DNA of 64,000 nt from Acidobacteriota bacterium (GTDB taxonomy: Bacteria > Acidobacteriota > UBA6911 > RPQK01 > JAJDTT01), in the NCBI GenBank assembly GCA_965209055.1, contig OZ242374.1:1568001-1632000 (forward strand), in the 5' to 3' direction. Of the stretch, positions 15,245-40,925 are shown piece by piece. The number at the start of each line of letters is the position of its first letter. The stretch's first letter is position 1. The notes under the pieces are model-generated. The model worked only from the letters and a program-made list of their open reading frames with translations, ran no database searches and had not been told where the DNA came from. A program made the translations under genes and the position numbers.

Positions 15245-15523
15245 ATGGGCTTCCCGGTGTCGATCCAGAGGTGTGAATGAGACAACGGACGCGAGTTACA
15301 TCGCGGAAGCCTTTTGACTTACACACTCGATTTCCCCGATCTCTTTATCGCTCATGCAGTTACGGCCATATTCCCGGCTCCGCCGCGCCCGCACGGGGAA
15401 ATCGGAGGTTGACGGGAGCGACCCCCCCTTTTTCCTGCCCGGTGCGGGCGCGGGGGTGTTGCGCAACTTACACTTGCGCAACACCCCCTGGGGGGGGTCG
15501 CTCCCGTCCAATTGATCCTGCGG
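15245..15523 (-). repeat. palindromic element copy S1 (interrupted at its core by element B)
   Basis: IR GACGGGAGCGACCCCCCC 15411-15428 / 15491-15508; inner perfect 15 bp hairpin 15452-15488 with loop CTTACAC. Confidence 0.9.
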
Positions 15524-16183
15524 ACTGTTTCTATAATTTCCGTAAACCATTAACTATAAATGAGTTATGAGATTTTCGGGACTGCTCTTCCCCCCATTCT
15601 TTCCACCGGGTTGAATTGGATGTCTTTAGCCCTTCGTGGTCGTGAACGGACGGTAACCGTTCGGTCAAGCCGTGAAGATCGACTTCCTGAGCCGGGCCTG
15701 CGGCCTCGCGCTCAATGGGGGCAAGCACCTGAGGAAGTGCCACGCTTCCACCTCCAACGGGATGGAGGCACAGAGCGGAGAATGTGACCCATGGTGTCGG
15801 AATGATGCGGTCGGGTCGCTTGCTGCGTAAGGACTTCGCGGCCGACCATCACCTGCCGTTATCCTATTCCAGGGAGGTCTTACTGCCGCGAAGAGTGGTT
15901 CAAACCCGGCAGCAACCCAACGGGAATTGATTACTGCGGCGAGGATGCCGACCCACCGCTCTTCTACGGCTTGACCGAACGATTACCATGGACGAGGGCA
16001 GCGGGGTGAAAACACGGATACGTCCCCTGCCGCTTTTTGTGGCGGGCGTTGGCTCTTGCTTGGGTTCTCGCACTGGTCTTTTTCTACTTGCCTTGTTCGG
16101 CGGATAGCCCAGTTCCCGGCGTGAAGAGCCGATCACCGACGAGGAATCACTTTCGATCCGCCGAAGTTCTCCTTTCGGAAAAG
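15524..16183. repeat. conserved non-coding terminal region of element B with 22 bp IR (15652-15673 / 15966-15987)
   Basis: Colinear with the reverse complement of ~40000-40686, with indels that break reading frames. Confidence 0.85.
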
Positions 16184-16189
16184 GGAGGC

Positions 16190-16250
16190 GAGGACGATCT
16201 CCCGGCGCACAACTTTCGCACGTTGCTGCAGGATCTGGGCACGCTGGCTC
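16190..16250 (+). pseudogene. very short IS1634-family transposase C-terminal remnant
   Basis: EDDLPAHNFRTLLQDLGTLA resembles the IS1634 C-terminal PVHSFRTLLADLATL motif. Confidence 0.45.
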
Positions 16251-16671
16251 AGGTCATTGTGACCCGTTCTTGGATCGCCGCCACTGCGGCCTGGGCCGCC
16301 ACGGCCACACCTTCTTGCCAGCCGGGCAAGGCGCTCAATTGATCGCCCGCGAAATAGATCCTCCCATCGGGCTCTCTGAGTTGTCTCGGTGGGTTGGAGC
16401 TCTCCGGCCAGCCGCCCCGCTGAAACGGAACCCTGGACCAAGCGCGGCTAACGCCGGATTCCATCTCGTCGCCATAGCCAGGGTGAATGAGATCGCCCTC
16501 GGTGATGGCGGCCTGCAAGCGTTCGGACGGCGTCAATTCCGAGTACCGCACCCCGGGCTCGGGGTCCCAGATATATGCCCCGAGGACGATCCCCTTTTCA
16601 CGATGATAGCCGTAGGCCGGATACCAAATCTGAGTAATGTCCTGGTCCGTCCACGAAATGCCACCGTAGAG
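16249..16671 (-). pseudogene. 3' fragment of flavin monoamine/L-amino-acid oxidase
   Basis: LYGGISWTDQDITQIWYP...GRIYFAGDQLSALPGWQEG; 5' part missing and replaced by an att-like end. Confidence 0.75.
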
Positions 16672-17259
16672 AAGGGGGGAACCACAAATATACTATAAAT
16701 AACTGATTCTAAATAGAGAATGTTCTTCTTTTGTGTTGGGTTGCCCCCGATGTTGCCCCCACAGCGACAGTTTGATCACCGTTGGCGAAAAAAGCGGGCG
16801 AGAGGTAGAACCAGAGGAAACACGCAAACAATTTGCAACTAGAGAACACCTCTTCCAAGTCATCCGACGACTACGGATCACCTCCGCTATCCATTCGAGT
16901 TTGCCTCTGCTCCCACGCTTCGCTGATCTTTTCCAGCCTTCGCCGCCGGGAATCATCGCACTCCTGCGCGATGAAAGTGAGTTGAAATGGAATCAGGAAA
17001 ACTCGCCATGGAAACTCTGGACCACACCCGAGACTTCTTCAGATTACTGGACCAGGATTGGGATCACAAGATCAGGTTTATCCGTGTGGTCCTTGGTTTC
17101 TCCTCCTAACAACTGCAGGGTCGCAGGTCTTAACGGAGACCAGGATACTTCTGGAAAGAAATGCAGTGCCATCCAACATTGTCGTAGTGACCTTCCCCCG
17201 GAATAAGGTCGACCTCACTCGCGTGAACCACTGCGTCGTTCCATTCATGCCGCTAACAT

Positions 17260-20200
17260 TCAACGCAGAATCGCGTCCTCCAGCAGCCCGAAATCTGTAA
17301 CTAGATCCAGTTTCTCACGAGCTTTCCCGCCGAACTGCATCGAAGCAAGATTTTCCGTCACCAGCCCCGAACGCAATTTCAGATCGCCTCCGTCGATGCC
17401 CGTGTGGTCGGCGAGACGTTCCCGGCTAGATTCCAGAAAAAACATGCGATCAAGGTGCTTTTGCAATGGTGTGCGTTTCGACTCGACCGTCCCAACGGAG
17501 TATTCCGCCAGCCGCTCACCGACCTCGCCCAGGCTACGGTCGAATCTTAGACTCTTGCACTCGATGGCAAACACAAGACCGGTTTCCCGTTTCCAGGCAA
17601 GCACATCGACATCGCCGAGGGATTCGCTCCCTCCGAACCGCGTGAGACTCAGTTCCTGTTCTGTCTCCCACTTCAGTCCTCCAAGACGCTTCGCTACCCG
17701 TTGCGCGAACTTGTGCCCATTTCTGTTTGCCGCCATACCAACGCAGGCGATCATCTCTGTGCTGTCAAAGAGGGTTTCGGGAAGCCCCCCGAACGCTGCT
17801 TGGCCCAAATAGCCTAGTGTTCCGGCCAGTATCGAGGGAAAAACAGCCACGACCGGGTCGTCCTCCTTCGATAATTGGACAAGTGGGCGGCGCAAGATCG
17901 ACAGACGCCTGGAGTACCGCCACGGGTACCAGTCTCTCGCCACTGCGTTTTCGGGTTCGCTTTCGTCCCATCGAGCCCTGGGAGCAAGCGCAAAATGCTC
18001 GAACGCCAATTCCGGGGTTGCTACACCTACGTCTCGCAGATATTGTATGATAGTGCTTCTCTGCAAGCGCAAATCGGCTCTGCCCAGCTTGATCGCCTCC
18101 AAGGTCAAGCGGTGCACGAACGTCCCATACTGTTCAGCCGTAAGACCGAACTCGGCGGCAAACGCGTCTGAGAAACTCGGGTGGGGCAGTGAATCATCAC
18201 TGATGGTTTGTTCATCCGGCTCCGCATTGAGAAATGTTCGCCGCCAGTGTTCGGACATCAACTGAGCTGTCGCCTGTGTTGCGCTTTGGTCGAAATCAAA
18301 AGAACCGTTTGCGTTCACGGCCGGCGGCCTTCTCGCCAAACCGTAGTGCAACGCATCGCTCTGGCTCGCGCATTCCACAAGAGTCGACACCTCGGCGATG
18401 AGAAAATCGAGGTCTGCTTTCGTGCAGGACGAGCCGCCGCCAAAAGGCGCCGTGCACAGTGCCATCTCCGCGATAACTCGGCACGCGAGGCCAGCACGAT
18501 CCCTGAGGAAAACGCGCTGTTTTGCTGCGACCATCGCCTGATTGGCACCAAAAAGCGAGAGCTGCGCCTCCATCGAACGCATCCACTCCCTGTGCTCCTT
18601 GCGGACGGCTACGTAGTTAAGTAGTGACGTTTGGATCACGCTTTCCCGGGATAGGCTTTTGAGCCGTGATCGTACTCGCTCCCAGACCACATCCACCGAT
18701 GCATTGAGAACCTTGCCGGCTTTCGATAGCGAAACGATGCCCGGCTTGCCCGTATATCCGGCTCGCCTCGCCAAGTCTAGGCGGCTCCAAGCCAGATCTT
18801 CCGGCATCGGCAAGCGCGGATCCGGAAGCGCGACCATGTCATAAATCACGTCCTCTGGCGTCTCACTGGGAGCCATCTTTAGGAATCGGGCGCTCTCGGA
18901 TCCAATCACGCTACGAACCCATTCCTTAATCCCCGTGTCCGAAGCATCCTCGTTGGTGCACAAGACGTGTACGCTTCGCGCTAGCGAACAGATCATCAGC
19001 CTGTCCCCAACGTTTCCTGGGCTTAGAAAGCTTCGCAGGTAATCTGGCGTGCAGTCGATCACGATTTCTCCGTTCTCAACGACGACCGCGGGCTCGAGCA
19101 ACGCTGGAGCCAGATCGAGATCGTGGCGACTGAATTCATCGATGTTCGGAAACCGAATCTGGAACTCGACGGGACCATCCGGCAACGCGGGGTATCGCTC
19201 CTCCAGCGCGGGCGCCAAACGGCCCAACCACCCGAGAACCATGTCCAAAACAGCAAATGCGATGCCGCGATTCCACACATCCTGCTGCACCTCGTCGCAT
19301 CGGACCCACCACGGCCGCGCGGCGGTTTCAACACAGGCCAACACTGTTCCCTCGGCTCTGTGTCCGGGACTGAGGAACACCGCACCACCTGCAGCTTCTT
19401 CCAGATGGCCATCCGTTTCCTGACGATGAACGCTAACGAAATAGTCTCCATCCGGACCCAGCGAAGCGTGGCGGTCCATCCCAGTCCGAATCTCATGGCG
19501 CAACGGCAGCATGAAATCGCTATGCAAGTAAATTGGGGCCACGTTCATGTTGGCTGGCACAAGCATGTTGGCTGGCACAAGCTCAAAATCGGTGTAGTAC
19601 GCGAAAGCCACTAGATTCGTGAATCCGCGCAGGTTTGGGAAGACGGTGCCCCGTTCCTCCAATTCGTCGACCTGTTGCAGCAGCTTCCAAGCCCGCATAG
19701 CCGTGAAATCACTTTTGGCTCCCAGCATCATGAAGTCGGGTGCCGAGACGCAAAGCTGATGCCAGCTGGATGGAAGATCTCCCCAGACCGGCGCAAAGTT
19801 GCGCCCGATGCCGCCGTCTACGAGCACAGTCAAGCCTCTCCGATAGTCGCGTTCCCATTCTAGCGCCGCTGCCCTGTCTTGAATTCGTTCCCTTATCGCA
19901 GCCTCAAGCACATGAATGCTTCTCAGTCCATTCTCGGCAACTGCAAGGAAATCATCGGGAACAAATGTCACATGTACGTACCCGCCATCGTCAAACGTTC
20001 CGACGAACTCCCGAAGCCCATCGGCCGGGTCGGGCTCCAGCATCTCCACGAATCCAATTCCCCAATCCGCTCTGCCCAACATGAAAGCTTCACTAAACCG
20101 CGCCAAGTGCCATGTCGCTTGAAACAGACGAAGATCCCCTGCAGCCGCAGCCCGCTCAAGCACAAAACGCCTGATCGCAGCGCCTATCGCTGTGGGAAGC

Positions 20201-21030
20201 ACGACCCACGTCCGGCCCCTCCACCGTACTAGCGGCCGACGTTCCAACTCCGAATGACCGAATGACTGCTCAGTGAGCAACTCCGCATGCTCCCCTTGAA
20301 ATACGAACGGATGGAGGATCCCCGGCTCGACTCCTATTGCGCCCAGCTCCTTGTCGCTGAAACCCACGTTGGCCTTGGATTCCGCTAGTATCGACCCGCC
20401 GACAGCAACCTTTTCCTTGGGCCTGCTCTCCGTTCTGGAATATCGTGCGATCCCAGCCCTTTCGGCGACTGCCTCACTCACGCGCAACAACGCCTCGACC
20501 TGCTTCAACGACTGTGCAGCCCAAGTACGATCCGCTATTCTCATCAGCGTGTCGAGGCATGCGCGAACGTACTCCGCGTTGTTTGCCCAGTGCCCAGCGA
20601 ACAACCGTGCGTTTCCGAACCAAGCGTCCACGTTCGATAGGAAAACGTCTTCGACCGGCATCTCCAGTTCAGTGATGACGTCGTTGTAAACCGCTATATT
20701 GAGCCACTCTCGAAGGTGTCGCTGATCTGGCGCCTTCTCGCCTTGGCAAGCCAATGCGGCCAAGTGAATCAATGCCTCGATTCGGCCACTCGCCGTGTGA
20801 TTCTCAGGCCTGGTCAACAATCCGGCTAATGGTGCGGCCACGAGCGGGAAGCTGAATTTCTCCAGACGCTTGACCACCGTGGCGAGGCGCATCGCGGTAC
20901 CTCCGATTTCACTCAACTCACTGGCTGCCGTGCTCGCCAATAACGCCGTCGCAACCTCGTCATGCGCATCAAACGATCGTTTGGTCAATACAGTGCTTCC
21001 TCCGCACGTGGTTGCATCTGGTGATCTCAA
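17260..21030 (-). CDS. large hypothetical protein with C-terminal PD-(D/E)XK nuclease domain (putative defence)
   Basis: 1256 aa ORF; GHKFAQRV...LGDVDVLAW...FAIECKSL catalytic-type motif. Confidence 0.75.
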   Translation of the reverse strand: MRSPDATTCGGSTVLTKRSFDAHDEVATALLASTAASELSEIGGTAMRLATVVKRLEKFSFPLVAAPLAGLLTRPENHTASGRIEALIHLAALACQGEKAPDQRHLREWLNIAVYNDVITELEMPVEDVFLSNVDAWFGNARLFAGHWANNAEYVRACLDTLMRIADRTWAAQSLKQVEALLRVSEAVAERAGIARYSRTESRPKEKVAVGGSILAESKANVGFSDKELGAIGVEPGILHPFVFQGEHAELLTEQSFGHSELERRPLVRWRGRTWVVLPTAIGAAIRRFVLERAAAAGDLRLFQATWHLARFSEAFMLGRADWGIGFVEMLEPDPADGLREFVGTFDDGGYVHVTFVPDDFLAVAENGLRSIHVLEAAIRERIQDRAAALEWERDYRRGLTVLVDGGIGRNFAPVWGDLPSSWHQLCVSAPDFMMLGAKSDFTAMRAWKLLQQVDELEERGTVFPNLRGFTNLVAFAYYTDFELVPANMLVPANMNVAPIYLHSDFMLPLRHEIRTGMDRHASLGPDGDYFVSVHRQETDGHLEEAAGGAVFLSPGHRAEGTVLACVETAARPWWVRCDEVQQDVWNRGIAFAVLDMVLGWLGRLAPALEERYPALPDGPVEFQIRFPNIDEFSRHDLDLAPALLEPAVVVENGEIVIDCTPDYLRSFLSPGNVGDRLMICSLARSVHVLCTNEDASDTGIKEWVRSVIGSESARFLKMAPSETPEDVIYDMVALPDPRLPMPEDLAWSRLDLARRAGYTGKPGIVSLSKAGKVLNASVDVVWERVRSRLKSLSRESVIQTSLLNYVAVRKEHREWMRSMEAQLSLFGANQAMVAAKQRVFLRDRAGLACRVIAEMALCTAPFGGGSSCTKADLDFLIAEVSTLVECASQSDALHYGLARRPPAVNANGSFDFDQSATQATAQLMSEHWRRTFLNAEPDEQTISDDSLPHPSFSDAFAAEFGLTAEQYGTFVHRLTLEAIKLGRADLRLQRSTIIQYLRDVGVATPELAFEHFALAPRARWDESEPENAVARDWYPWRYSRRLSILRRPLVQLSKEDDPVVAVFPSILAGTLGYLGQAAFGGLPETLFDSTEMIACVGMAANRNGHKFAQRVAKRLGGLKWETEQELSLTRFGGSESLGDVDVLAWKRETGLVFAIECKSLRFDRSLGEVGERLAEYSVGTVESKRTPLQKHLDRMFFLESSRERLADHTGIDGGDLKLRSGLVTENLASMQFGGKAREKLDLVTDFGLLEDAILR

Positions 21031-21211
21031 CCCATCTCAAATTCATCTGCCTTCCGATTCCGAATACTCCACACTTGCGATGCGACTTCTGCCGCGCCAT
21101 CACTCCCAGCTTCGCGTAGCAGCTTCCGCAATCCCAACCAACCTTCTCGGGAGTAAATTCGGCTGTACGGACAAACCCGTCCGGTAAACGTTTAGGGCGG
21201 CTGCATAAAGC

Positions 21212-25893: not shown

Positions 25894-25902
25894 TCCCTTC
25901 AG

Positions 25903-26313: not shown

Positions 26314-26570
26314 CCTTCCCGCAAGGGGATCAATGGGACGGGAGCGACCCCCCGAGGCGATGGCACGGAGAGTGCACATCAGCCTACCCCGCTTTGCCGA
26401 TCCGGGAGGCAAAAAAGGGGGGTCGCTCCCGTCCATCTCCGCTCTCCCCGAGCGGCAGCCCCAAGCCGCGAGGCAATCCGTAACCCGAACAGGGACAGTG
26501 AGTTAGGAGAACACGTTCGTGCACATCGAAAGGCCCCTTTCGTGCACATGCCCCCTCTTGTCCTATGTGC
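26314..26570 (+). repeat. palindromic element copy S2 (divergent, intact core)
   Basis: CCTTCCCGCAAGGGGATCAAT followed by IR GGACGGGAGCGACCCCCC...GGGGGGTCGCTCCCGTCC (~26336-26434). Confidence 0.8.
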
Positions 26571-26702
26571 GCTCCCCGAGCGGCACGATATGCCTTCTTT
26601 CAGCGGTCGAACCCAGCCTCATTTCTTAGCTGTTCCCGGACGGTTCTTGTGTTGGGAAGGACGTTCCGTCACTGACGGAGGACTCGTCCGGAGGCAGGGA
26701 GG

Positions 26703-28825: not shown

Positions 28826-29110
28826 CCTTCCCGCCAGGGATATTTTGGAAGGGAGCGACCCCCCCAGGGGGTGCTGCGCAAATGTGAATGGCGCAACACC
28901 CCCGCGCCCGCACCGGGCAGGAAAAAGGGGGGGTCGCTCCCGTCCACCTCCGCTTTTCCCGTGCGGGCGCGGCGAAGCTGGGAATGCGGCCGCAACTGAT
29001 TGAGCGAAAAAGAGATCGGGGAAATCGGATTTGTGAATCGCCGGGACCGCTTTTTGTGAATCCACCCCCAATGTCCCATTCACACTCCCGGACCGGCACG
29101 AGACCCCCTT
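28826..29110 (+). repeat. palindromic element copy S3 (intact empty target)
   Basis: CCTTCCCGCCAGGGATATTTTGGAAGGGAGCGACCCCCCC...GGGGGGGTCGCTCCC, inner hairpin retained. Confidence 0.9.
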
Positions 29111-29320
29111 TGCGCCCAGCCGAAACGAGTCGTTGTGAACCCTTGCGACTGCCAAGTGCGGAACTATGTCCGCGACACCGTTCCGCAGCGTTTGCAATTC
29201 TGCCCGCCTAGCCCGACCCGAGCGTCTCGCCATCCGGCACAGGTTCGCTCGAAGCTCTTGGGCGCCTGGATCGGTTCGGGTGTCCAGCATCCTGAATCGC
29301 CAAGGCCCAGAGAATATTGG

Positions 29321-30292: not shown

Positions 30293-31024
30293 TGAAACCT
30301 CCTCCTGGGGAATCGTCTGGACGGATTCGGATATCGGTGTTGCGCCGGTTGGCGGAAACCAGTGGAGCAGGTCGGGGCGTGACACGAACAAACAGTGTGG
30401 GACGCCCCGCAGACCGTCCTCACACCCACGGTCTAGAACCGGCCGTCGTGGATAGCCATCGCCATCATGTCGGTGCGGGACACCCAGCCTCATCGGTGTC
30501 CTGAAGTCTCCGGGACCTCTCCCTCTAACCAGTACAACGTCTGGAATCGGGATCGGTCACAGACTATTTTTGATGGCTCTGTTTTCGGAGGCGATTAGAG
30601 GGGGGCACGATGGCTCAAGGGAGCTTCACTGATCCTGTCCCTTGGTCCTGGAGATTCTGGGCAGCGCCGGATAAAGGCGGGCATCGATGCGCTGCTAGAC
30701 GAGCTTGGCTCGATTCAACCGAGTTGCGACGTTCGAACGGGAGGCACGCAGCCTCTCCACCGTCGGCTTCCTGAGGGCCTTTAGCCGTTGCTCGTGGATG
30801 TCAGGGACGCTCATGCGTCCCATCTGGCCCGTCTCGGATATCATTTATGCCTTCCCGCAAGGAATGTCGTAATAAATCAGCTACATCGTCCAGATAAGTC
30901 CAGTATGGTTCATAAGTGTTTGTATTAGATTGGTTTACCACTAGACCAGGCATCCGACCTTGTCCCATGCCGACCCGCTCCGTCCCCTTGCATCCACCAT
31001 TCTGTGGTATGTATAGTGGTAGGT

Positions 31025-32245
31025 ATGACACTTATAAAACGACCCCCGAAACGCAAGCCGCGCGGCCAGCATCCCCTCAATGCCCTGACCCCGGCCTTTG
31101 TCCGCAACGTGAACCAGGCCGGACGCTATTGCGATGGCCACGGGCTCTATCTCGACGTCCGCCCCACGGGCAGCCGGGGCTGGATCCAGCGTCTCACCAT
31201 TCGTGGCCGCCGAACCGAGCTCGGGCTCGGCGGATTCCCCCTCGTCTCGCTCAAGGAAGCGCGCGAGAAGGCGTTCGCCAACCGGAAGCTAGCCCGCGAC
31301 GGGGGCGACTCCCGGGCCGAGAAACGGCGGGCCGAGTCGATGCCCAGCTTCGCGGACGCCGCCCAGGCGGTCTGGAAGCAACTGCGGCCGGGCTGGCGCT
31401 CCCCCCGGCATGCACGGCTCTGGCTGAGAAGCCTGGAGCGCCACGTCCTGCCTCATATCGGAAAGATACCGATTGCGCAGGTGACGAGCGCGGACGTGAT
31501 CGGGATTCTGGCTCCGATCTGGCACGAGAAGGCCGCCACCGCCCGGAAGCTCCGCCAGCGCATTCGCGCGGTCCTGGAGTGGGCCGTGGCGATGGATCTT
31601 CGGCCCGACAACCCGTGCGACCGGATCGGCCCGGTGCTTGGTGCGCAGGGGAAAGCCGTGCGTCACATGCGGGCGTTGCCTCACGGGGAGGTTGCGTCTG
31701 CACTCCGGACGGTGCGGGCATCGAACAAGCGGCCGGTGGTGAAGCTGGCGTTCGAGTTCCTGGTGCTGACGGCGACGCGCTCCGGCGAGGTCCGGGAGGC
31801 GGTCTGGACGGAGATCGACCGGAACCAGGGCGTGTGGACCATCCCCGCCGGACGCATGAAGGGGTATCGGGAACACCGGGTCCCGCTAACCCGCCCTGCG
31901 TTGGAGATCCTCAGGGAGGCGAAGGTGCTCGGTCGGGGCAACCGGCTCGTTTTTCCCAGAGTGAGCGGGAAGCCACTGGGGAGGACCGCCATGTCGGAAC
32001 TTCTCCGGGGGTTGAGGATTGCGGCGGTGCCGCACGGGTTCCGGTCGAGTTTCCGGGACTGGGTGGCGGAGGAGACGGAACATCCCCGCGAGGTGGCGGA
32101 GGCGGCGCTGGCGCACAAGGTGCGCAACCCGGTCGAGGCGGCCTACCGGCGCACGGACCTGTTCGAGCGGCGGCGTGTGCTCATGGAGGACTGGGCGGGC
32201 TATCTGGCGGGCGAGAGTCGGCAACCGGTCGCGCCGTCGAGGTGA
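31025..32245 (+). CDS. tyrosine integrase of element A (P4-like)
   Basis: DGHGLYL, TATRSGEVR, HGFRSSFRDW, ALAH, AAYRR. Confidence 0.95.
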   Translation: MTLIKRPPKRKPRGQHPLNALTPAFVRNVNQAGRYCDGHGLYLDVRPTGSRGWIQRLTIRGRRTELGLGGFPLVSLKEAREKAFANRKLARDGGDSRAEKRRAESMPSFADAAQAVWKQLRPGWRSPRHARLWLRSLERHVLPHIGKIPIAQVTSADVIGILAPIWHEKAATARKLRQRIRAVLEWAVAMDLRPDNPCDRIGPVLGAQGKAVRHMRALPHGEVASALRTVRASNKRPVVKLAFEFLVLTATRSGEVREAVWTEIDRNQGVWTIPAGRMKGYREHRVPLTRPALEILREAKVLGRGNRLVFPRVSGKPLGRTAMSELLRGLRIAAVPHGFRSSFRDWVAEETEHPREVAEAALAHKVRNPVEAAYRRTDLFERRRVLMEDWAGYLAGESRQPVAPSR

Positions 32246-32365: not shown

Positions 32366-32650
32366 CCTTCCCGCAGGGATCAATGAAGAAGTGAGCGACC
32401 CCCCCCCGCGCATGCCGCGCCGGTGTGCAACGGAGTGGAACACGGGCAGCGCCTGCGTGACGTGCGAGGCACGAAAACAGGGGGGTCGCTCACTTCTCCT
32501 CCCCGGACTCTCCGTCCGGGCGCGCCTCCTCCGGAAGGACGGGGACAAACCGAAGGGAATCAACAAGATGGCGGAAAGGGGGCTTGTGAAACTCGCCGCT
32601 CCGAGAGTGGAACACACCCCCCCATGTCTGTTTCACATCCCGGGACTTCG
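32366..32650 (+). repeat. palindromic element copy S4 (compensatory variant, intact core)
   Basis: CCTTCCCGCAGGGATCAAT; IR AGAAGTGAGCGACCCCCC 32387-32404 / GGGGGGTCGCTCACTTCT 32480-32497. Confidence 0.85.
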
Positions 32651-32879
32651 CCGGACTGGCCCCCCGGAGGTGGAACACGGCCCGGGAGCGGACCGCCGCA
32701 TTGCCGTCAATGGGACTTTCCGTGCTCTTTGCAGCCCGTGGATCCACGACGTCCACGGGGTCCACTCGGGACCGGGCGCGCGCGGCCCCTCAGGCGCTCC
32801 ACAACCCTCCTCCCGGTTTCCGCTGGAATCTGGACCGGGAGCCAGGTCCGGCCCCGGTCGATGCGGATGCGGTTTTGGG

Positions 32880-33180
32880 GGATGGGGGCGATGGCCCGCT
32901 CCCGCCGGAGGTCGTCGCGGGCCACCGCGACCACTTGCACCGGGGGGTCTTGTGCGCGCAGCGCGGCCCAGAGCCGGGCGTGCTCCGCCCCCCACGAGCG
33001 TAGCTCCGAGTCGGCGTCCCGGCCGGGATCGACGTAGGCGAAGGTCGCCCGGTCCTCCTCCAAGGCCAGGGGGAGCTTGCGGGGGAAGTATCGGCTCCGC
33101 CCCTGGGCATGGACGGTATTGTGGCGGCACGGGAACAGCCGCCGGGAAAGGCCCAGCGCCTCCAGCGACTGCGACTGCTG
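32880..33180 (-). pseudogene. internal fragment of a paralog of the Replic_Relax-like protein
   Basis: RYFPRKLPLAL..ATFAYVDPG..LRSWGAEHARLWAALR..VQVVAVARDD aligns with the 14321-15244 product. Confidence 0.8.
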
Positions 33181-33202
33181 CGTCACCTGCGGATCGACAG
33201 TG

Positions 33203-33501
33203 TTCATGGGGAGGTGAAAGGGCTTCCCGGTGTCGATCCGGGAGTGTAAGTGAGACAACGGGGGCGACTTACAACAGGGGAGCGATTTCACTTACACACG
33301 CGATTTCCCCGATCTCTTTGTCGCTCATGCAGTTACGGCCACATTCCCGGCTTCGCCGCGCCCGCACGGGGAAAGCGGAGGTGGACGGGAGCGACCCCCC
33401 CTTTTTCCTGCCCGGTGCGGGCGCGGGGGTGTCGCGCAATTCACATTTGCGCCACACCCCCTGGGGGGGTCGCTCCCATCCAATTGATCCCTACGGGAAG
33501 G
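33203..33501 (-). repeat. palindromic element copy S5 (intact core)
   Basis: Close direct copy of ~15231-15523, including the last codons of the rep-like gene; core ATCCCTACGGGAAGG at 33487-33501. Confidence 0.9.
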
Positions 33502-33622: not shown

Positions 33623-35065
33623 TCATTCCACCACTTCTCTCCACCATACATCACCTACCCTGACCGCACACTTCAGATCCACTGCGTTTGGAGGAGCTGG
33701 AATACGTGCGTCGCCTACATAATTGAGTACGACTGTTCCGCTTGGTCTCCCTCCGAACCATCTCAAGGTGTCGACCCACCGTCTCCCAGAATTCTCGATG
33801 GAATGATTGGACTCGTCGCGGGAATGACACCCAACAAGGTATTCAGAGAGCCGGTAGGTTTCTTCAAACGACCCCGTGATACGACACTGGGAGGGATTCG
33901 GCCATTCTCCGGGGAAAACTTGGCAATCAACGGAGAGCCAAGAGGCTTCCTGGGACATCCTCTTGAATGTCCTGTGATACTCAAACGGATCTGCGTTTGG
34001 CTCGGGTGGATGTGAGTCTGTCTTCTCTGGAATAAGCCTGCGGTCAAGATAGACCTCCCACTTCAAATCCTTAGTCCCTGCATAAATTCTGATCTCCCTG
34101 CGAACCTCCTGAACAATCCCCGGAGAGACTTTGCCTTCGAACGCCGTTATCCGAACGTCGCGTTCGAAACCCACTGCGGCGCGGATGATGCGGCAATCGA
34201 GATCGAATAGTCCACGATTGTGGATCTGGATGTGATAATAGGATTCATCACTTTCTATGACAGATCCGAAATACTCGATTCGAACCTCGGACGCCCCATA
34301 CGTGTACACGAGCTTTCCTTCAAAGCTGTCCACGGGTTCAGGCTCTGGATCTATTCCAAGAATCCAACTCCTAAGGACGGTTGTGTTGGAGTAACTTCCA
34401 GTACCAGAATGATTCGTGGCGCCTGCGACCCCCACCTGAGCCCATCCCTGCATGGTCCACAAGAGAAGCGGCCCGCCGCTATCTCCACACTCGATGTACC
34501 CACCCTGCTCACCATCAGTTCCAGCTAGCAAGACACGACCCACGTGCCCAATTCTCACAGGGGCCTTCTGTAGGAACACTGGACTGGCCGAGCGCGGCGC
34601 TTCCTCATCACAAGACCCAACAGACCGAGTTCTCCCCCACCCTACCGATGCTCCAATGTCTCCCTGGGACACCTCATCGTGAAGAGGGACAGGGGAGATT
34701 TCAGACACGCGCTCTGACAAGAAGATGATGGCGATATCAAGATCATCGTGAAGGTCGAAATGAGCAGATCTCTGAAAACGGGAAACTCTTCTGTCGAAGT
34801 AGATCCAAGCACTGTCAGAGTCCTCCACGCAGTGCTTCGCTGTGAGAACTCTGTCGGGAGCAACGAGGCTGCCTGTGCAGGAGAAAGTGCCTTCTCCGAC
34901 TCTGCTGCTGATCTCCACTACAAAGGGAAATTCCCCAGGAACAACGTCGCTTCCTCCAACGATGTGATCGTAATCGGTCTCTACAGAGCCCCCCTCACCT
35001 GAGAGTGGGGAGACTAGCGCCGTCAACGACAGAAGTGCTATCGGGATCGCACGGCACATACTCAT
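33623..35065 (-). CDS. secreted trypsin-like (S1) serine protease with C-terminal extension
   Basis: Signal peptide, IVGG, LTAKHC, DIAII, GDSGGP. Confidence 0.88.
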   Translation of the reverse strand: MSMCRAIPIALLSLTALVSPLSGEGGSVETDYDHIVGGSDVVPGEFPFVVEISSRVGEGTFSCTGSLVAPDRVLTAKHCVEDSDSAWIYFDRRVSRFQRSAHFDLHDDLDIAIIFLSERVSEISPVPLHDEVSQGDIGASVGWGRTRSVGSCDEEAPRSASPVFLQKAPVRIGHVGRVLLAGTDGEQGGYIECGDSGGPLLLWTMQGWAQVGVAGATNHSGTGSYSNTTVLRSWILGIDPEPEPVDSFEGKLVYTYGASEVRIEYFGSVIESDESYYHIQIHNRGLFDLDCRIIRAAVGFERDVRITAFEGKVSPGIVQEVRREIRIYAGTKDLKWEVYLDRRLIPEKTDSHPPEPNADPFEYHRTFKRMSQEASWLSVDCQVFPGEWPNPSQCRITGSFEETYRLSEYLVGCHSRDESNHSIENSGRRWVDTLRWFGGRPSGTVVLNYVGDARIPAPPNAVDLKCAVRVGDVWWREVVE

Positions 35066-35200
35066 CTCACCTCTCTTGACGCAACGATCCTGGAGTTTTC
35101 GGAGGCGAAGAACCTTTCTTGGTGTAGTTTCCTGTGTCTACTGATGGGATAGTGGAGATCACCTGATTTCTATTGGTCGCCAAGAGGCTATTTCCCGCGG

Positions 35201-35485
35201 CTAGACACGCTCGGCAATCCGGCGGCCAGACTCGATTTCTTCTCGCCGCAGTTTCCAGGTCTTTTGTAGGTTCAGCCACACCTGCGGGGTTGTCCTGAAG
35301 TAGCGCGCCAAACGCAATGCCGTATTGGCTGTCACACGCTGCTGCCCATTCAGGATCGCCGTAATTCGATTCACGGGCACATCCAGCGCCTTCGACAGCG
35401 CATTAGCCAACATGTCAAGAGCATCCAGTTCGTCCCGTAAGATCTCTCCCGGGTGCACCGACCGCATCCCATTTGTGAAGTTCAT
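35201..35485 (-). CDS. higA: orphan HigA-family antitoxin
   Basis: VHPGEILRDEL, VPVNRITAIL, TALRLARYF..WLNLQ. Confidence 0.85.
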   Translation of the reverse strand: MNFTNGMRSVHPGEILRDELDALDMLANALSKALDVPVNRITAILNGQQRVTANTALRLARYFRTTPQVWLNLQKTWKLRREEIESGRRIAERV

Positions 35486-35760
35486 TGCCTCGACTCCCTC
35501 AGTTTCCGATCTTCCCTCAACTGGCAACGAGGAGCAACCGTGGTGCCCCGGAGCCCTCCGTCTCAGTTTCATGGTATACGGGGTGTGAGTGCCGCACCGA
35601 TCATGCTCGTTTGGCGACTCCGGGATTTATCTCGCTTGCCGCTTATGGTCCCCCCATAGACCGTCCCGCGAGGATGCGGCAACGTCCCTCACCGGACGCT
35701 GTGTTACATTGACGGGTCCATGAGCAGGCACAAACAAGAAGTCCGACCGGTGCAGGAAGG

Positions 35761-37608
35761 ATGTCGCCAAAAATATCCGGCCACTGGAAACCGAGAATCC
35801 TGGCCGTGATGCTCGCCGCTCTGGTGCTGGGACTTGGCCCTTCAGCGGCGGCGCAATCGCGAGATGATTTCTCCTATTGGGACGGCAACAGGGACCTGAC
35901 CTGCTCCGAAGCATTGAACCGCGATGAGGGGCTGCGGTTGCCGGCGTACAAGGACAACCGTGATGGCACCGGGATCATCTACGAGTGTCTTAAGCGGCAG
36001 CGGTCGAGCGACACGGACAACGACGACATCGCCTGTGACTCATCGTCGAACCCTAAAGGATACATTCCAAAAACACGAACCGAGGATCCGCAGCCCACGG
36101 GGTGCCCGCCGGATGCAGAGACTTGGCGCGGGCTGAAGGTCTGCGCGGAGCGGTCACGCGACGGCTACGATCGCGATGACTACGGATCGAGATACAAGAG
36201 TCTGGAAGACGACATCATCGCGGCGATGCCAGCGACGATGAAGAAAAATGGGCAGGTTTACACCCCGTATTCCTGCATCCTGTTCGACATTACGCCAGCG
36301 GGGACGGCGGCCACGGACATCGAGCACATCGTCGCTCTGGCGGAGGCGCACGACAGCGGGATCGCCGACTACAGGCGGCGGGACATCGCGAGCGACCTCG
36401 ATAACCTGACGATCGCAGACCCGACGGTGAACCGGTCGGCAAAGAGAGACCGGGATGCCGCCGAGTGGATGCCGGATCGACACGGCGCATGGTTCGCAGC
36501 TCGCGTGATTGCCGTGAAGCAAGAATATGAGTTGAGCGTCGACCCGGCGGAGCGCGACGCGCTCGAAAGGCTCCTCGGCGGCGATGAAGCCGAACTGAAC
36601 TGCGTTGGCGCGGTTTCCGTTCCGGGGGCGCCATCATTATCCGCCCGAGATGGCAATGGGACCGTGATACTCAGGTGGAATCCGCCAGCCAATGACGGCG
36701 GTGCGGCGGTCCTCAGCTACGATGTCCGCTATCGCGAGTCGGGCGCCAGCTGGGGCTCCTGGATGGAAGTCGAGGGTGGTACCACTGCACGCAGTACCAC
36801 CATCAAGGGACTGACCAATGGGACATCCTATGAATTCCAAGTGAGGGCAGTGTACGCCGACGGCGGCGGCCCGCCGGCCACGACGGAATCTACGCCCATG
36901 CCAAGTCTGCACTTCGCCCACTTTGCCAACGGTGAACAACGCGGAGTCACCATTACTTCTGAGATCGTCCTGATGAACGTGGAGAATTCCAAGATCTACC
37001 CGGTGGTCCTCTTCTACAACCAGATGGGTGAGCAGATTGACGCCGGAAGGGTCGTGGACCTGATGGAAGGCCTGATGATCACGGCGGATGGAGGCGTGGC
37101 ACCGGCCATGGGTCTCAAGGGCTTGGGCGAGATCACCATCCCGACCAACGGTCGAGGGGCCTTGGTGATCGGGTCGGCTAATGTGTTCTCAGACGGCCGC
37201 ATCGGCGGATTGCTGAGATTCATCGTCCCATCGCTCGGAGTGGCCGGAGTGGGAGCCAGCGAGCCCGTCAACGATGCCATATTTCCGGCTCGTTGGATGA
37301 AGGACGGCATCAATACCGGAGTTGCGATCCGTAACCTCAGCCCAGAGCGCACGACGGTCACTTGCGACCTGATGCGGGGCGGCCAAGTGGTGGAGCCGAA
37401 GGATGTCCCGCTCGACGGAGACGGGCATAGCTCTCAGTTTATTACCGAGGTGTTTGCTGACACCTTCACGAATACGGAAATGACCGAGTTCGTGGGGTCG
37501 GTGCGCTGCCGGGCGCCCGAGGGGTCCATGTTCACCGGCGTGGCCCTGGAGATGGATTTCAACCACCGGATCTTCACCACGCTTCCGATAGTGCCGGTCA
37601 ACCAATGA
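35761..37608 (+). CDS. secreted DUF1524/HNH-type nuclease with Ca-binding-like N-terminus, fibronectin III and C-terminal domain
   Basis: Signal peptide; DTDNDDIAC; DIEHIVALAEAHDSG..NLTIA..VNRSAK; FN3 (LRWNPP..YDVRYR..GLTNGTSYEFQVRA). Confidence 0.8.
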   Translation: MSPKISGHWKPRILAVMLAALVLGLGPSAAAQSRDDFSYWDGNRDLTCSEALNRDEGLRLPAYKDNRDGTGIIYECLKRQRSSDTDNDDIACDSSSNPKGYIPKTRTEDPQPTGCPPDAETWRGLKVCAERSRDGYDRDDYGSRYKSLEDDIIAAMPATMKKNGQVYTPYSCILFDITPAGTAATDIEHIVALAEAHDSGIADYRRRDIASDLDNLTIADPTVNRSAKRDRDAAEWMPDRHGAWFAARVIAVKQEYELSVDPAERDALERLLGGDEAELNCVGAVSVPGAPSLSARDGNGTVILRWNPPANDGGAAVLSYDVRYRESGASWGSWMEVEGGTTARSTTIKGLTNGTSYEFQVRAVYADGGGPPATTESTPMPSLHFAHFANGEQRGVTITSEIVLMNVENSKIYPVVLFYNQMGEQIDAGRVVDLMEGLMITADGGVAPAMGLKGLGEITIPTNGRGALVIGSANVFSDGRIGGLLRFIVPSLGVAGVGASEPVNDAIFPARWMKDGINTGVAIRNLSPERTTVTCDLMRGGQVVEPKDVPLDGDGHSSQFITEVFADTFTNTEMTEFVGSVRCRAPEGSMFTGVALEMDFNHRIFTTLPIVPVNQ

Positions 37609-37657
37609 CGAATAGAGAGCATCAATCCCACGGCCTCTCGCAGGATCCAATGTCATA

Positions 37658-38131
37658 TCAAACGGGTCGTGGCCAAGTTTTCCAATTTGAGGGGTTTTCG
37701 CCGCGCCGCTCGATCTCCTCTATGAGAGCCTGAATCGAGTGGGACGATCCCCAGCCATCGGCCGGGGCCAACCCATCCCGGACAATGTGAGGTCGTCCTG
37801 GGAGATAGGTCTTCGATTCGCGGAGGCTAATCCCCAACCGGCGGTTCGGGATCCACATGTGGTCTTTGACTGCGAATCCCCACGGCCACAGATCTGCTCC
37901 TGGGATCGACGATGAAAGCTCATGCGGTCCGTCTTTGGCAGCCCTCTGAAGACCCATGAAGACCATGTTCCCCGGACCGGGGAAATAGATCAGGATGAGA
38001 TCATTCTTCTTGACCTGATCCCGATATTTCCACCCTGTACTTTCGGTAAAGTGCTGATGTTCAAGGTCGCGGCAATTCCAATACTGTTTCGGATTTTGGC
38101 CGTCACCTTTCATTGCTTGCCAGATAGCCAT
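37658..38131 (-). CDS. hypothetical protein, possibly EVE/PUA-like
   Basis: QVKKNDLILIYFPG...WPW pattern. Confidence 0.5.
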   Translation of the reverse strand: MAIWQAMKGDGQNPKQYWNCRDLEHQHFTESTGWKYRDQVKKNDLILIYFPGPGNMVFMGLQRAAKDGPHELSSSIPGADLWPWGFAVKDHMWIPNRRLGISLRESKTYLPGRPHIVRDGLAPADGWGSSHSIQALIEEIERRGENPSNWKTWPRPV

Positions 38132-38395
38132 TCAAAGTTTCCCCTTTTTCCCTGATGGGATTGAATCAGGTCACACGACCGGAAACGGGAATCTAATTCC
38201 CGGGAATCATCCAGTCAATATGTTGAGCAAGACCGCGAGGCTGGCGACCATGATAGCAAGACGCCACATCTTCGCCTCACTCGCGACGATCCTGGTTTCC
38301 AGACGGACAACCGCAGCATCAAGATTGGATTTGGTCGCCAGTTGCTCCCCGACTGGGATGGATTCTGCCTCTCTCCGAGCCGTGTCATTGGATGC

Positions 38396-38899
38396 TCAAT
38401 ATCCGAATCGAGACTTCTGGTGTGGGCATGTCGTGCTCCTCTTGTACCGTGTCGGCAAGTCGCGATACCAGTCGCGGTAAGACACACGAGGTGGTTTGCA
38501 ATCACAAGAGGGAAAAGTCTCTGCTTCGTATTTTGCACGTTCCCAGTCGTGTTTTAGCAGCAATGCTATTCGACAAGCAAATGCCTCAGCGTGCTCCAAT
38601 TCCTTACCATCTGGCGGAAGTGTTACGCACTTGAGGATCTCCATATCCTCTATCCCGTGTTCGTCCTCGTAGTACGGATTGAGTCGCGCACGCAACTCAC
38701 TTCTGAGCCGATTAAGTCTCTTCTTGTCTCTACCAATCATGGCATCGTGAATGCACAATGCTGTCCATCTCACCTTCTCTCGCCACTTCGTCCGTTCTTG
38801 AGTGACATTCTCAACGCGCAGACGCTTTGACGCGATGTGCCAAGTGATGAAGGCAGTAATTGCTACGGGCAGTGTAGCTAGAGCCAAATCGTAAATCAT
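38396..38899 (-). CDS. hypothetical membrane-anchored protein
   Basis: N-terminal TM, TQERTKWREKVR, LLKHDWERAKYEA. Confidence 0.65.
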   Translation of the reverse strand: MIYDLALATLPVAITAFITWHIASKRLRVENVTQERTKWREKVRWTALCIHDAMIGRDKKRLNRLRSELRARLNPYYEDEHGIEDMEILKCVTLPPDGKELEHAEAFACRIALLLKHDWERAKYEAETFPSCDCKPPRVSYRDWYRDLPTRYKRSTTCPHQKSRFGY

Positions 38900-39022
38900 T
38901 TTCTTGGTTTGGGTTTCCTGACGATTTGAGGGACGTGTGATGGGGGAAAGATCGAAGTAGACGCGCCTCCTCCAAGTTTCAAAGACGAACCCGACGTGGA
39001 CTTCTAGAGAGAACCGTACGTG

Positions 39023-39586
39023 TCACAGACGGAGGAGGGACGACTGGACAATTTCTCGAGTCAATACTTGCCGCTGATCACAGGTCTGTCGCAATTCTCG
39101 ACTAGCGCTAGAGTCCCGACGATCTCTCCCATGCCACAGCGTTGTGAGAATTCCTTCTCTCTTCACGGCCTCGATTGCAGGTACGAAGTCGCTGTCCCCG
39201 GACAACAGCACTACCTTTGCGAGTCGATTCTTCGCGGCTAGCAATGCCATGTCCACGCCTAGCATGAGGTCAACACCCTTCTGTTGGAATATCCGTTTGC
39301 CGTCCGAGTCCGTACCGCGGAGCACGAGCTTCCCCAATCGCACGTCGAAGTTGGGAATGTTCCGGAGTGCGTCCTCAAAGCGCCGCCAGGAGCTATAGCG
39401 AGCCCTCTCGTCTTCGGTGGGTGGGTTGCTCTGATACGGTCGACAATTATAGTAGTAGGTGCGGAGTAGTACATCGTCCCCAACCATGGCATCAACAAGA
39501 AGTCGAAAATCAACCCTTGCTCGTGAGTGTTCGTGCTGGAGCACCTTTTCGAGATAAGCCCCGTCAATGAATACTGCTGTGAACAC
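39023..39586 (-). CDS. NYN (LabA/DUF88, PIN-like) ribonuclease
   Basis: VFIDGAYL, QKGVDLMLGVDM, LSGDSDFVP; probable GTG start at 39586. Confidence 0.9.
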   Translation of the reverse strand: MFTAVFIDGAYLEKVLQHEHSRARVDFRLLVDAMVGDDVLLRTYYYNCRPYQSNPPTEDERARYSSWRRFEDALRNIPNFDVRLGKLVLRGTDSDGKRIFQQKGVDLMLGVDMALLAAKNRLAKVVLLSGDSDFVPAIEAVKREGILTTLWHGRDRRDSSASRELRQTCDQRQVLTREIVQSSLLRL

Positions 39587-39614
39587 TGTGGATGCCTGTT
39601 GGGAAGCACACCAG

Positions 39615-39654
39615 AAAAGGGAAAGGGCCGGAACAAACCGGCCCTTTCCTTTTT
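39615..39654 (-). terminator. intrinsic terminator-like hairpin in the NYN leader
   Basis: GGAAAGGGCCGG-aacaaa-CCGGCCCTTTCC flanked by A/T runs. Confidence 0.65.
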
Positions 39655-39751
39655 TCATTTTTTCCCACCGTGCCTTAGGAATACTACGGGATCCGAAAAA
39701 GGTTGCAGTCCCGGCTCCATCAGGAACGATGGGGTCCATTCCGTCAGAGCC

Positions 39752-39781
39752 ATCCTAACCAATGGATCTCGATACTGTCAA
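39752..39781 (-). promoter_or_regulatory. sigma70 promoter upstream of NYN leader
   Basis: TTGACA-18nt-TAGGAT on the minus strand. Confidence 0.6.
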
Positions 39782-39875
39782 CAATAATTTAGGTCAAAAA
39801 TGTCTTGATTGGATAAGGATACTTGAGAGCTTAGGCGTGCCGTCATGGATTCTTGATAAATCCCTAAACAATAGT

Positions 39876-39995
39876 CACAGTTCCCGGGCCATCCACTTGA
39901 CTTCGCCGATCACCTCAGCCTCACCCCATGGCTCGGACGCCCAAGCCGGATGATCGCTGACAAACTGCTAGTCGCCGGCATCATCTTTCCCGGCT
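39876..39995 (-). pseudogene. C-terminal remnant of S24/CI-like repressor
   Basis: AGKDDAGD*QFVSDHPAWASEPWGEAEVIGEVKWMAREL. Confidence 0.55.
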
Positions 39996-39999
39996 CACT

Positions 40000-40686
40000 T
40001 TTCCGAAGGGAGAACTTCGGCGGAGCGATAGTGATTCCTACTCGGTGATCGGCGCTTCACGCCGGGAGCAAGGCTATCCGCCAACGAGGCAACTACTAAG
40101 CGACCGGTGCGATGCTCGAACAAGCGAGGTGGTACATGGGCATTCACCGGCGGTGTTTCCCCGACCCTGACGCTAGGCGGCTTGGTCTAGAGCCCAGGGT
40201 CGAAACTCGTCCATGGAGTCCACGGGTAACCGTTCGGTCAAGCCGTGGAAGAGCGGTCGTTCCGCATCCTCGCCGCAGTGCCCAATTCCCGTTGGGTTGC
40301 CGTCGGGCTTGAACCACTCTTCGCGGCAGTAAGACCTCCCTGGGAAAGGATAACGGCAGATGATCGTCGGCCGCAAAGTCCTTACGCAGGGCGATCCGAC
40401 TGCATCGTTCCGACACCGTGGGTCAGGTTATCCGCTTTGTGCCTTCATCCCGTCGGAGGTGGAAGAGTGGCACTTCGTCAGGTGTTTGATCCCCATTGAG
40501 TGCGAGGCCGCAGGCCCGGCTCCGGAAGTCGATCCCCACGGCTTGACCGAACGGTTACGTCCGTTCTCGGCCACGAAGGGCCAAAGACATCCAATTCAAC
40601 CCGGTGGAAAGAATGGGGGGAGGAGCGGTGATGGAAATTTCATAACTCATTTATATAGAATGGTTTACGGACTTTAGAAAAACAGT
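40000..40686. repeat. conserved non-coding terminal region of element A with perfect 23 bp IR (40226-40248 / 40536-40558)
   Basis: Inverted homolog of 15524-16183. Confidence 0.85.
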
Positions 40687-40925
40687 CCGCAAGGGATATT
40701 TTGGACGGGAGCGACCCCCGCGCCCGCACCGGGCAGCAAAAAGGGGGGGTCGCTCCCTTCCACCTCCGCTTACCCCGTGCGGGCGCGGCGAAGCCGGGAA
40801 TGTGTCCGTAACTGCATGAGCGAAAAAGAGATCGGGGAAATCGGAGGTGTAAGTCAAAAGGCTTCCGCGATGGAACTCGCGTCCTTTGTCTCCCTTACAC
40901 TCCCCGATCGACACGGCGGAGCCCT
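40687..40925 (+). repeat. palindromic element copy S6 (interrupted by element A; inner hairpin deleted)
   Basis: CCGCAAGGGATATTTTGGACGGGAGCGACCCCC..GGGGGGGTCGCTCCC..GAGATCGGGGAAATCG..CTTACACTCCC. Confidence 0.9.

Follow-up and report, generated by a model that had tools for sequence, protein, structure and literature searches.

Plasmid pTEF1, assigned to MOBC by MOB-suite, carries six short direct repeats followed by a nested inverted repeat (IR) of ~140 bp, located between its coupling-protein and Replic_Relax genes. In pAD1 and pAM373, as Francia and Clewell reportedly described in 2002, short repeats set the plasmid specificity and the nick occurs within the large IR. The origin of transfer (oriT) of pAD1 is placed between ORF53 and ORF57 in the account of PMC3084688, and MOBC relaxases (TraX of pAD1 and MobC of CloDF13) are described in PMC6736028 as restriction-endonuclease-like, with a DEE metal motif. 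The iOriTs, as presented in bioRxiv 10.64898/2026.01.13.699239, are integrative elements with only an oriT and with helper-dependent transfer. Here we describe a structured non-coding element lying beside an unannotated gene, gene X, in a 64,000-nt stretch of DNA (the window; positions 1568001–1632000) of the 6.08-Mb single-contig genome of an Acidobacteriota bacterium (GenBank GCA_965209055.1, contig OZ242374.1). The reading that we favour, with real but limited confidence, is that the element serves as oriT for integrative conjugative elements of a widespread family not yet annotated, that X is its cognate binding or nicking protein and that orphan copies mark mobilizable islands. Positions refer to the window unless given as genome positions.

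Several lines of evidence lead to this reading. The element sits between X and a coupling-protein gene in VirB-type clusters and is conserved at a fixed offset downstream of X. Its nested IR and short repeats resemble known oriTs, such as that of pTEF1, its arms covary, and the match between a hairpin-apex motif and repeats in the tail looks like a specificity code. The predicted structure of X resembles a winged helix followed by a nuclease-like fold, MOBC relaxases being restriction-endonuclease-like. No other relaxase was found in the genome with seven Pfam families of known relaxases, MOB_M (tyrosine-recombinase-like), MOBL and MOBB lying outside this search. Finally, ~61 dispersed copies versus one type IV secretion system (T4SS) match the iOriT pattern.

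Copies and architecture of the element

The original prediction described a six-copy palindromic non-coding element of ~280 bp, present in both orientations and built from a core, an outer IR, an inner hairpin and a tail. All six copies (S1–S6; Table 1) are found by a repeat search and a six-way alignment, which shows the same layout. In the direction from core to tail, termed ‘E+’, S2, S3, S4 and S6 lie on the plus strand and S1 and S5 on the minus strand. Pairwise repeats of 181–298 nt with 88–91% identity link S1, S3, S5 and S6; S2 is connected by shorter 59-nt repeats (81–85%) and S4 via a 42-nt core family (D5). The figure of six does not hold beyond the window: the genome contains 62 element loci by blastn and 61 oriented elements by a strict outer-IR pattern, a copy number far above chance, and there are hundreds of loci in other phyla. 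The family is present in all eight congeners searched and in three more genomes among 41 relatives, one of them from another family with 12 matches. At six places in the genome, two or three elements stand in tandem. Just left of one three-copy array (genome 814792–816712) lies a 606-aa open reading frame (ORF) for a C5 DNA methyltransferase (genome 811809–813627).

When intact, the element is the ~330-bp spacer between gene X and the gene of the type IV coupling protein. Thus, its description as a palindromic non-coding element stands as to structure but not as to an autonomous repeat, since it is the cis-acting spacer of an X–element–coupling protein module; its full length is ~300–440 bp and not ~280 bp. 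The core (left) edge is sharp, with 61 copies starting at the same nucleotide (±2) across 27 left-flank classes. The right edge is ragged, with extents of ~200, 280, 310, 340 and 440 nt, and passes into gene X, either its 3′ end or what remains of it. Small ORFs over the element (clusters c2, c8, c15 and c20), considered as genes, were rejected as spurious; they are rich in Arg, Pro and Ser and shift frame between copies.

From the left edge, the element begins with a short palindrome containing CCTTCC. The outer IR follows, with an invariant centre (AGCGAC...GTCGCT) and arms that are 74–92 nt apart in all but one element. Its loop holds the inner hairpin and then a moderately conserved segment. 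The tail, ~100 nt further, contains three copies of a 6–9-nt motif (iterons), two direct and one inverted, and the apex of the inner hairpin bears a further copy of the same motif. This motif differs between copies, being TGTGAAT in S3, GTGTAAG in S1 and in the tail of S6, GTGCAC in S2 and GTGGAACAC in S4; GTGCGCA, TGTGAAA and GGAAACAAACCC are found in other phyla, giving at least six subtypes in total. Within elements, the apex and tail motifs tend to agree: in 79 of the 117 unique elements compared, an apex 6-mer occurs two or more times in the tail of the same element, versus a mean of 28.6 and a maximum of 40 in 300 trials with permuted tails.

Paired changes in the arms

The outer IR was compared in these 117 unique elements, of which 54 come from this genome and 63 from others, with the invariant hexamers as anchors. 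The five pairs flanking the invariant centre change in pairs. Offset 1 is GC in 111 elements and TA in 6, with none unpaired; offset 2 is GC in 101, TA in 9, CG in 5 and AT in 1, with one unpaired; and offset 3 is GC in 111, TA in 3 and CG in 2, again with one unpaired. Further out, pairing is looser, with CG 73, AT 15, TA 9 and 20 non-Watson–Crick pairs (one T–G wobble included) at offset 4, and AT 75, GC 14, CG 5 and 23 non-Watson–Crick pairs (one G–T wobble included) at offset 5. In the inner hairpin of the main subtype, 8 of the 14 pairs show double changes among 31 unique sequences, and other subtypes carry an unrelated hairpin in its place. The compensatory changes that the original prediction had noted in S4, where both arms changed together, and the unrelated interiors of S2 and S4 around a preserved outer IR are both seen, and the compensation holds in the larger alignment. 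Therefore, selection acts on paired arms. The covariation fits folding of single-stranded DNA or RNA and dyad binding by a protein alike, and these data cannot separate the two.

Folding of the interior is also strong, with a median z of −3.8 against mononucleotide shuffles and values below −2 in 97 of the 117 elements. A third inverted repeat, P3, straddles the 3′ arm of the outer IR, pairing an outer-loop segment with one beyond that arm. Although strong in the main subtype of this genome, P3 was set aside as only modestly supported overall, an exact complement of at least 7 nt being found in 45 of 117 elements versus a permuted mean of 26.5 and maximum of 36.

Strong predicted folding with covariation, and a high copy number in both orientations, are what a structured non-coding RNA gene or a selfish repeat of the miniature inverted-repeat transposable element (MITE) or repetitive extragenic palindrome (REP) type would show. 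Either is very improbable here. The original prediction recognized no named family, and the Rfam searches agree: a gathering-threshold scan of the window returned tRNA-Phe only, and an E-value scan of S3 gave three chance-level rows of 13–19 bits versus gathering scores of 72–123. A MITE or REP family with target-site duplications, looked for as the finding that would speak against the original prediction, was not found; the elements have no terminal inverted repeats and no target-site duplications, their right ends are ragged, and the left end is unrelated to the right-end module of the islands described below. Moreover, the element keeps the same position with respect to two protein genes in different phyla, and an invariant part of the hairpin arm suggests recognition of a specific sequence.

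A fixed place in conjugation clusters

A scan for X loci in one genome per species gave 596 pattern matches, of which 566 were confirmed; neighbourhoods were counted in the best 80 of these 566, all from other genomes. These 80 loci belong to metagenome-assembled genomes of Acidobacteriota, Terriglobia, Gemmatimonadota (Longimicrobiales), Dehalococcoidia and Gammaproteobacteria, often with several loci per genome. Both exact outer-IR heptamers occur at the same offset downstream of X in 62 of the 80, with X itself only ~50–57% identical. The full architecture is visible in sequences from these loci, where the iterons are specific to each lineage and arm variants are compensated.

The neighbours are those of a conjugation apparatus. 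A coupling protein is encoded in 65 of the 80 loci, on the strand of X in 63 and with a median start ~400 nt past the end of X. VirB8 is found in 70, on the strand of X in 69, its median start being ~700 nt upstream of X. VirB11 (55), ArdC (49), VirB10 (47) and VirB4 (45) are other neighbours among the 80. The intact order, by Pfam, is VirB10–VirB6–VirB8–X–[element]–type IV coupling protein–VirB11–ArdC, with a P4-type integrase near intact clusters. The genome studied here has one T4SS cluster, comprising primase/AAA_25, pilin, VirB4, VirB9, VirB10, VirB6, VirB8, X, element, coupling protein and VirB11; its other unannotated ORFs have no NCBIfam match. In addition, ArdC-like–X–element modules of the GTGGAACAC subtype occur three times (genome 477579–479905, 1991772–1994062 and 2522212–2524519). 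Three of the intact X genes form such modules next to integrases, an adjacent integrase being located for at least one module (locus L126, 2980–4251).

The place of the element also brings a regulatory role into consideration. The core of the original prediction is, by eye, the reverse complement of a GGAAGG ribosome-binding site, a reading that follows from the coupling-protein gene adjoining the element in intact clusters; by eye too, this site serves either that gene or a short leader ORF. An apparent leader ORF of ~16 codons is seen by eye between the ribosome-binding site and the coupling-protein start (genome 1832000–1832115 and 2522100–2522212), its stop overlapping the coupling-protein ATG.

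The element could accordingly be the promoter/operator and 5′ leader of the coupling-protein operon, with X as a transcription factor acting on the iterons and the orphans as products of decay or as portable signals for the expression of new genes to which they became fused. In Longimicrobiales loci the coupling-protein start lies ~10–13 nt beyond the ribosome-binding site, in several orphan flanks an ATG lies, by eye, 6–9 nt past the same site, and the N-terminal domain of X is MarR-like. Known oriTs overlap promoters, and a promoter role may coexist with an oriT role or replace it. One such case, in the account of PMC5587640, is the IncA/C oriT, which overlaps the mobI promoters. Even so, we consider a promoter or leader function an unlikely explanation of the element. 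X lies within the T4SS operon, its start overlapping the end of the VirB8-like gene, which is unusual for a dedicated repressor; orphans retain the whole structured part of 300 nt, with compensatory changes, after the regulated gene has gone; and conservation of the outer-IR centre between phyla far exceeds that usual for promoter regions.

Gene X and its predicted structure

Gene X belongs to no Pfam, NCBIfam or PHROGs family, the ESM Atlas gave no named family for it, and a profile search of solved structures gave no match. It is nevertheless widespread, with 3,205 homologues at E ≤ 0.001 in a word-indexed search and 1,872 cluster representatives in an exhaustive search. The genome has six intact X genes. 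The tail of S1 abuts the X stop codon, and most other copies are followed by X fragments of ~10, ~30 or 35–100 codons.

An AlphaFold2 model from a 35-sequence alignment has a pLDDT (predicted local distance difference test) of 92.4 and a pTM (predicted template modelling score) of 0.83. In a structural search of this model, residues ~1–95 match MarR-type winged helices with Z of 7–8.4. Modelled alone, the C-terminal 190 residues give a pLDDT of 82.6 and form an alpha/beta domain whose best structural rows in an exhaustive search are mainly PD-(D/E)xK nucleases: SdaI (Z 6.8, 102 residues aligned, root-mean-square deviation 3.9), CdiA-CT (6.5), NucS (6.0) and LlaBIII (5.5), with AgeI, BspD6I, Can2, EcoT38I and McrC as further rows. 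Conserved polar residues include E126, E128, K162, D178, H194, Y85 and Y158. X is thus predicted to combine a winged helix with a weakly restriction-endonuclease-like domain, which would correspond to the architecture of MOBC relaxases.

The search for relaxases of the MOBP/Q, MOBF, MOBH, MOBV and MOBT families gave no match in the genome to PF03432, PF08751, PF07514, PF03389 or PF01076. A single sub-threshold match to PF02486 (Rep_trans) was rejected as spurious, since it lies inside a C5 DNA methyltransferase ORF.

Three iterons close to the 3′ end of a gene for a winged-helix protein, with a motif that co-varies with element subtype, also recall replication origins, in which iterons lie just 3′ of rep; X would then be the initiator for the excised element, and the cluster of this genome does encode a primase/AAA_25 protein. 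Such an origin is improbable. X matches no Rep family, and its C-terminal domain is nuclease-like rather than a second winged helix; the module is placed between VirB8 and the coupling protein, not beside the primase; and the element contains no AT-rich segment for unwinding.

The tRNA-Phe island and the orphan copies

The 3′ end of tRNA-Phe (12545–12566) is repeated ~40 kb further on, and therefore the six copies of the window lie in one 40-kb island. From left to right, it contains Int1, X and S1; defence genes; S2 and S3; Int2 and S4; a truncated X back-to-back with S5; and finally S6 and Int3 (Table 1).

Table 1. Features of the tRNA-Phe island (window positions; strand of elements given as E+)
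Feature	Position	Strand	Remarks
tRNA-Phe	12492..12566	+	Left attachment site of the island
Int1, P4-type tyrosine integrase	12733..13950	+	Beside tRNA-Phe, upstream of X and S1
Gene X	14321..15244	+	307 aa; unannotated; candidate oriT-binding or nicking protein
Copy S1	15245..15523	-	Directly downstream of intact gene X; iteron subtype GTGTAAG; AT-rich flank at core end
Copy S2	26314..26610	+	Outer IR retained; interior of a different subtype, with GTGCAC iterons and apex
Copy S3	28826..29133	+	Subtype TGTGAAT; two direct iterons, one inverted, one at hairpin apex
Int2, P4-type integrase	31004..32245	+	3′ end 120 bp from S4 core
Copy S4	32366..32790	+	Subtype GTGGAACAC; outer IR extended, arms co-changed
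Truncated X paralogue	32707..33207	-	tblastn aligns X residues 127–223; lies between S4 and S5
Copy S5	33217..33501	-	TGTGAAT-type apex and GTGTAAG-type tail
Copy S6	40686..40925	+	Inner hairpin deleted; AT-rich flank as in S1, inverted
Int3, P4-type integrase	41294..42607	-	Convergent with S6; inverted copy of Int2
tRNA-Phe 3′-end direct repeat	52703..52727	+	Right attachment site

The genes of the first module, Int1–X–S1, are those expected of an integrative mobilizable element. S4 is the cognate site of the X fragment on its right, and the X of S5 itself is reduced to ~10 codons (33180–33216). The regions of Int2 (30849–32207) and Int3 (41320–42678) are inverted copies with 88% identity, and S1 and S6 share an AT-rich flank of ~700 bp in inverted orientation. 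With the elements included, these flanks form inverted repeats of ~950 bp with 86–94% identity (15247–16198 and 39983–40925), each holding S1 or S6 and the AT-rich flank with promoter-like TATAAT boxes. These repeats bracket 24 kb, and inversion between the arms seems possible. Collectively, the island looks like the product of accretion and rearrangement of several X–element modules at one tRNA site.

The S1–S2 interval carries defence genes (SIR2-like, GmrSD/HNH and an EcoRI-type methylase) and the S5–S6 interval trypsin-like, FN3 and NYN genes. Defence-type genes around the copies are located at 17260–25367, 39023–39739 and 43198–45453; the set comprises a 1256-aa protein of unknown type, SIR2-like, GmrSD_N/HNH, NYN-domain and HATPase_c_3 proteins and an EcoRI-family adenine methylase. 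Beside S3, an ORF of ~70 codons (28610–28819, minus strand) starts at the core edge, and its end resembles, by eye, the C-terminal tail of a DDE transposase. Its counterpart is a 78% repeat upstream of Int2 (30727–30856), also seen in the left flank of several genome copies.

Contigs assembled from four metagenome runs, compared over 24000–43900, break at every element copy and at the integrases, and the summed word depth over element and integrase bins is 5–40 times that of the unique flanks. No clean joint bearing on excision occurs in these contigs. In a sponge-metagenome run, contigs of 1.7–4 kb with 0–10 differences over the unique parts indicate that a near-identical strain is present.

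Across the genome, ~61 elements stand against a single T4SS, and many are parts of small islands. A conserved right-end module of ~150 bp lies 0.8–6.3 kb downstream of 26 elements. These paired elements sit in islands of 2.7–20 kb, with an outward-facing P4-type integrase module at the opposite end and the same 11–15-nt direct repeat at both ends. The outward-facing integrase module occurs at 27 genome places, the query included. The smallest islands (2.7 kb) hold an integrase, a spacer, the element, an X remnant and the right end, and nothing else. If the element is an oriT, and only then, these islands have the gene content of iOriTs.

Examples of small islands are found at genome 4661737–4664876, 2974085–2976764 and 4495153–4497915. 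A pseudo-tRNA 5′ half follows the integrase, and the end repeats, of which at least four variants occur, resemble anticodon stem-loops. A stop codon plus GGAG often closes the left flank and CCCCTCC opens the right one, which suggests as target a palindromic, GC-rich hairpin immediately downstream of genes. The right-end module occurs at 30 genome places (e.g. 2820690–2820839), contains internal palindromes and ends exactly at the direct repeat; none was found within the window.

The proximity of integrases raises a further explanation, that the element is an attachment-site arm holding arm-type binding sites for nearby P4-type integrases. Such an integrase lies within −5/+7 kb of 41 of the 62 element loci, its 3′ end is ~370 nt from the element start in several of them, and the integrases carry Arm-DNA-bind_3 domains. 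Despite this, the explanation has next to no likelihood. Intact elements lie inside the T4SS cluster beside X and not beside an integrase, the sequence from element to integrase is an X 3′-end remnant and not a tRNA-like core, and the true island ends are elsewhere, namely the direct repeats at the integrase side and at the right-end module. The junction between truncated copies and the convergent integrase, considered as a tRNA-like (anticodon-loop) crossover, was rejected, since it corresponds to the 3′ coding end of X in intact loci; a search of the window for this junction motif gave nothing.

Proposed mechanism and points against it

If the element is an oriT, the winged helix of X would bind all three iterons of the tail and their counterpart at the hairpin apex, and X or a partner would nick one strand near or within the conserved outer IR. 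The coupling protein would then hand the nicked strand to the T4SS. Orphan copies have lost X, leaving ragged remnants, and kept the site up to one sharp edge. Their islands bear integrases and no T4SS, and would be open to mobilization in trans by another element that provides both a T4SS and a matching X; islands with the oriT only, or with X and the oriT, would in this way depend on the single conjugation system of the genome. The binding of DNA by X, strand nicking and transfer are what we infer from this arrangement of genes and repeats.

A number of observations weigh against the oriT reading. No nic site was identified in the element, and the ribosome-binding site of the following gene falls on its sharp edge, a coincidence that fits a promoter or leader role at least as well. 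As for X, Foldseek gave no match at E ≤ 0.001 for the whole protein or its C-terminal domain, and the fold matches of this domain all have Z < 8, a level where a common arrangement alone may explain them; because of these values, the nuclease-like fold is a lead, not a proof. PF13814 is found neither in X (E ≤ 0.01), nor in 35 homologues (E ≤ 1), nor in the whole genome (E ≤ 10). Compared by hhalign with 23 Replic_Relax proteins of the pTEF1 type, the X alignment gives a probability of 4% and E of 0.01, over 108 co-linear columns that span the winged helix and the helix after it; the single-sequence comparison gives a probability of 0.3%. Other unannotated ORFs of the cluster could be the real relaxase, and neither X nor the element matches any PLSDB plasmid.

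The specificity code is not without breaks. Apex and tail subtypes are mixed in genome copies 479877 and 481954, which are chimeric, and in S5, which looks recombinant for this reason. Most orphans belong to the TGTGAAT type, for which this genome showed no intact cognate X, and the resident helper cluster has an element of the GTGCAC/GTGCGCA subtype. Mobilization of the orphans by the resident element is therefore doubtful, the iteron subtypes being different.

It is tempting to go beyond the oriT reading and to propose that X founds a new relaxase family, unrelated in sequence to the nine named MOB families, that its oriT carries a readable specificity code of 6–9 nt shared by the tail iterons and a hairpin apex, and that one conjugative lineage with swarms of oriT-only islands is the main vehicle of defence genes in Acidobacteriota and Gemmatimonadota, symbionts included. 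Mobility predictors based on relaxases and oriTs would then overlook every one of them. This extension is possible, though speculative, and we put it forward tentatively.

Implications

Should the element prove to be an oriT, a whole group of conjugative and mobilizable islands would escape current annotation in phyla that have been little studied. X has >3,200 homologues with no Pfam family, and its site is unmatched in Rfam and PLSDB. The present genome would count as relaxase-free despite a full T4SS. Recognition of the site would let the mobility of islands be predicted from sequence, and would explain how ~60 small islands, many with defence genes, spread with a single transfer machine in the genome. 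The co-varying iteron and apex motifs would also provide naturally occurring specificity variants with which to study the recognition of an origin by its transfer initiator. Were the oriT reading to fail, X and its site would still stand as a conserved protein–DNA recognition module across phyla, with clear covariation.

Comparison with known systems

A close likeness is with oriT2 of the enterococcal pheromone plasmids pAD1 and pTEF1. There too, the site lies between the gene of a winged-helix protein of ~260–310 aa and that of the coupling protein, and combines a large nested IR with a series of short repeats. The differences are several. Neither the site nor the protein shows sequence similarity to its enterococcal counterpart; the order is X–site–coupling protein here and coupling protein–site–relaxase in the enterococcal plasmids; three iterons with a hairpin-apex copy replace the six tandem repeats of pTEF1; and the hosts are diderm phyla with a VirB-type T4SS.

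Rep and iteron origins also have short repeats next to a winged-helix protein gene, with a motif that co-varies with the protein lineage. The present element differs from them by the lack of a Rep family match and by its T4SS operon context, and its long conserved hairpins and the nuclease-like domain of X are atypical of iteron origins. The oriTs of IncA/C and SXT elements (MobI), in the account of PMC5587640, are likewise short intergenic regions with multiple inverted and direct repeats, and overlap the promoter of an adjacent small transfer factor that is indispensable and of unclear biochemistry. The IncA/C site is AT-rich and upstream of mobI, whereas the element is GC-rich and downstream of X.

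The small islands can be compared with iOriTs. Both, as far as the description in bioRxiv 10.64898/2026.01.13.699239 goes, are integrase islands with attachment repeats and an oriT-like site and with no relaxase or mating-pair genes; both outnumber their helper and have defence genes near the site. That study covers six nosocomial species, and the hosts here are uncultured and Acidobacteriota-like. Here, moreover, the site and protein family are unannotated, transfer is a prediction, most orphans differ from the resident helper in iteron subtype, and the copy number is much higher, with ~61 copies in a single genome.

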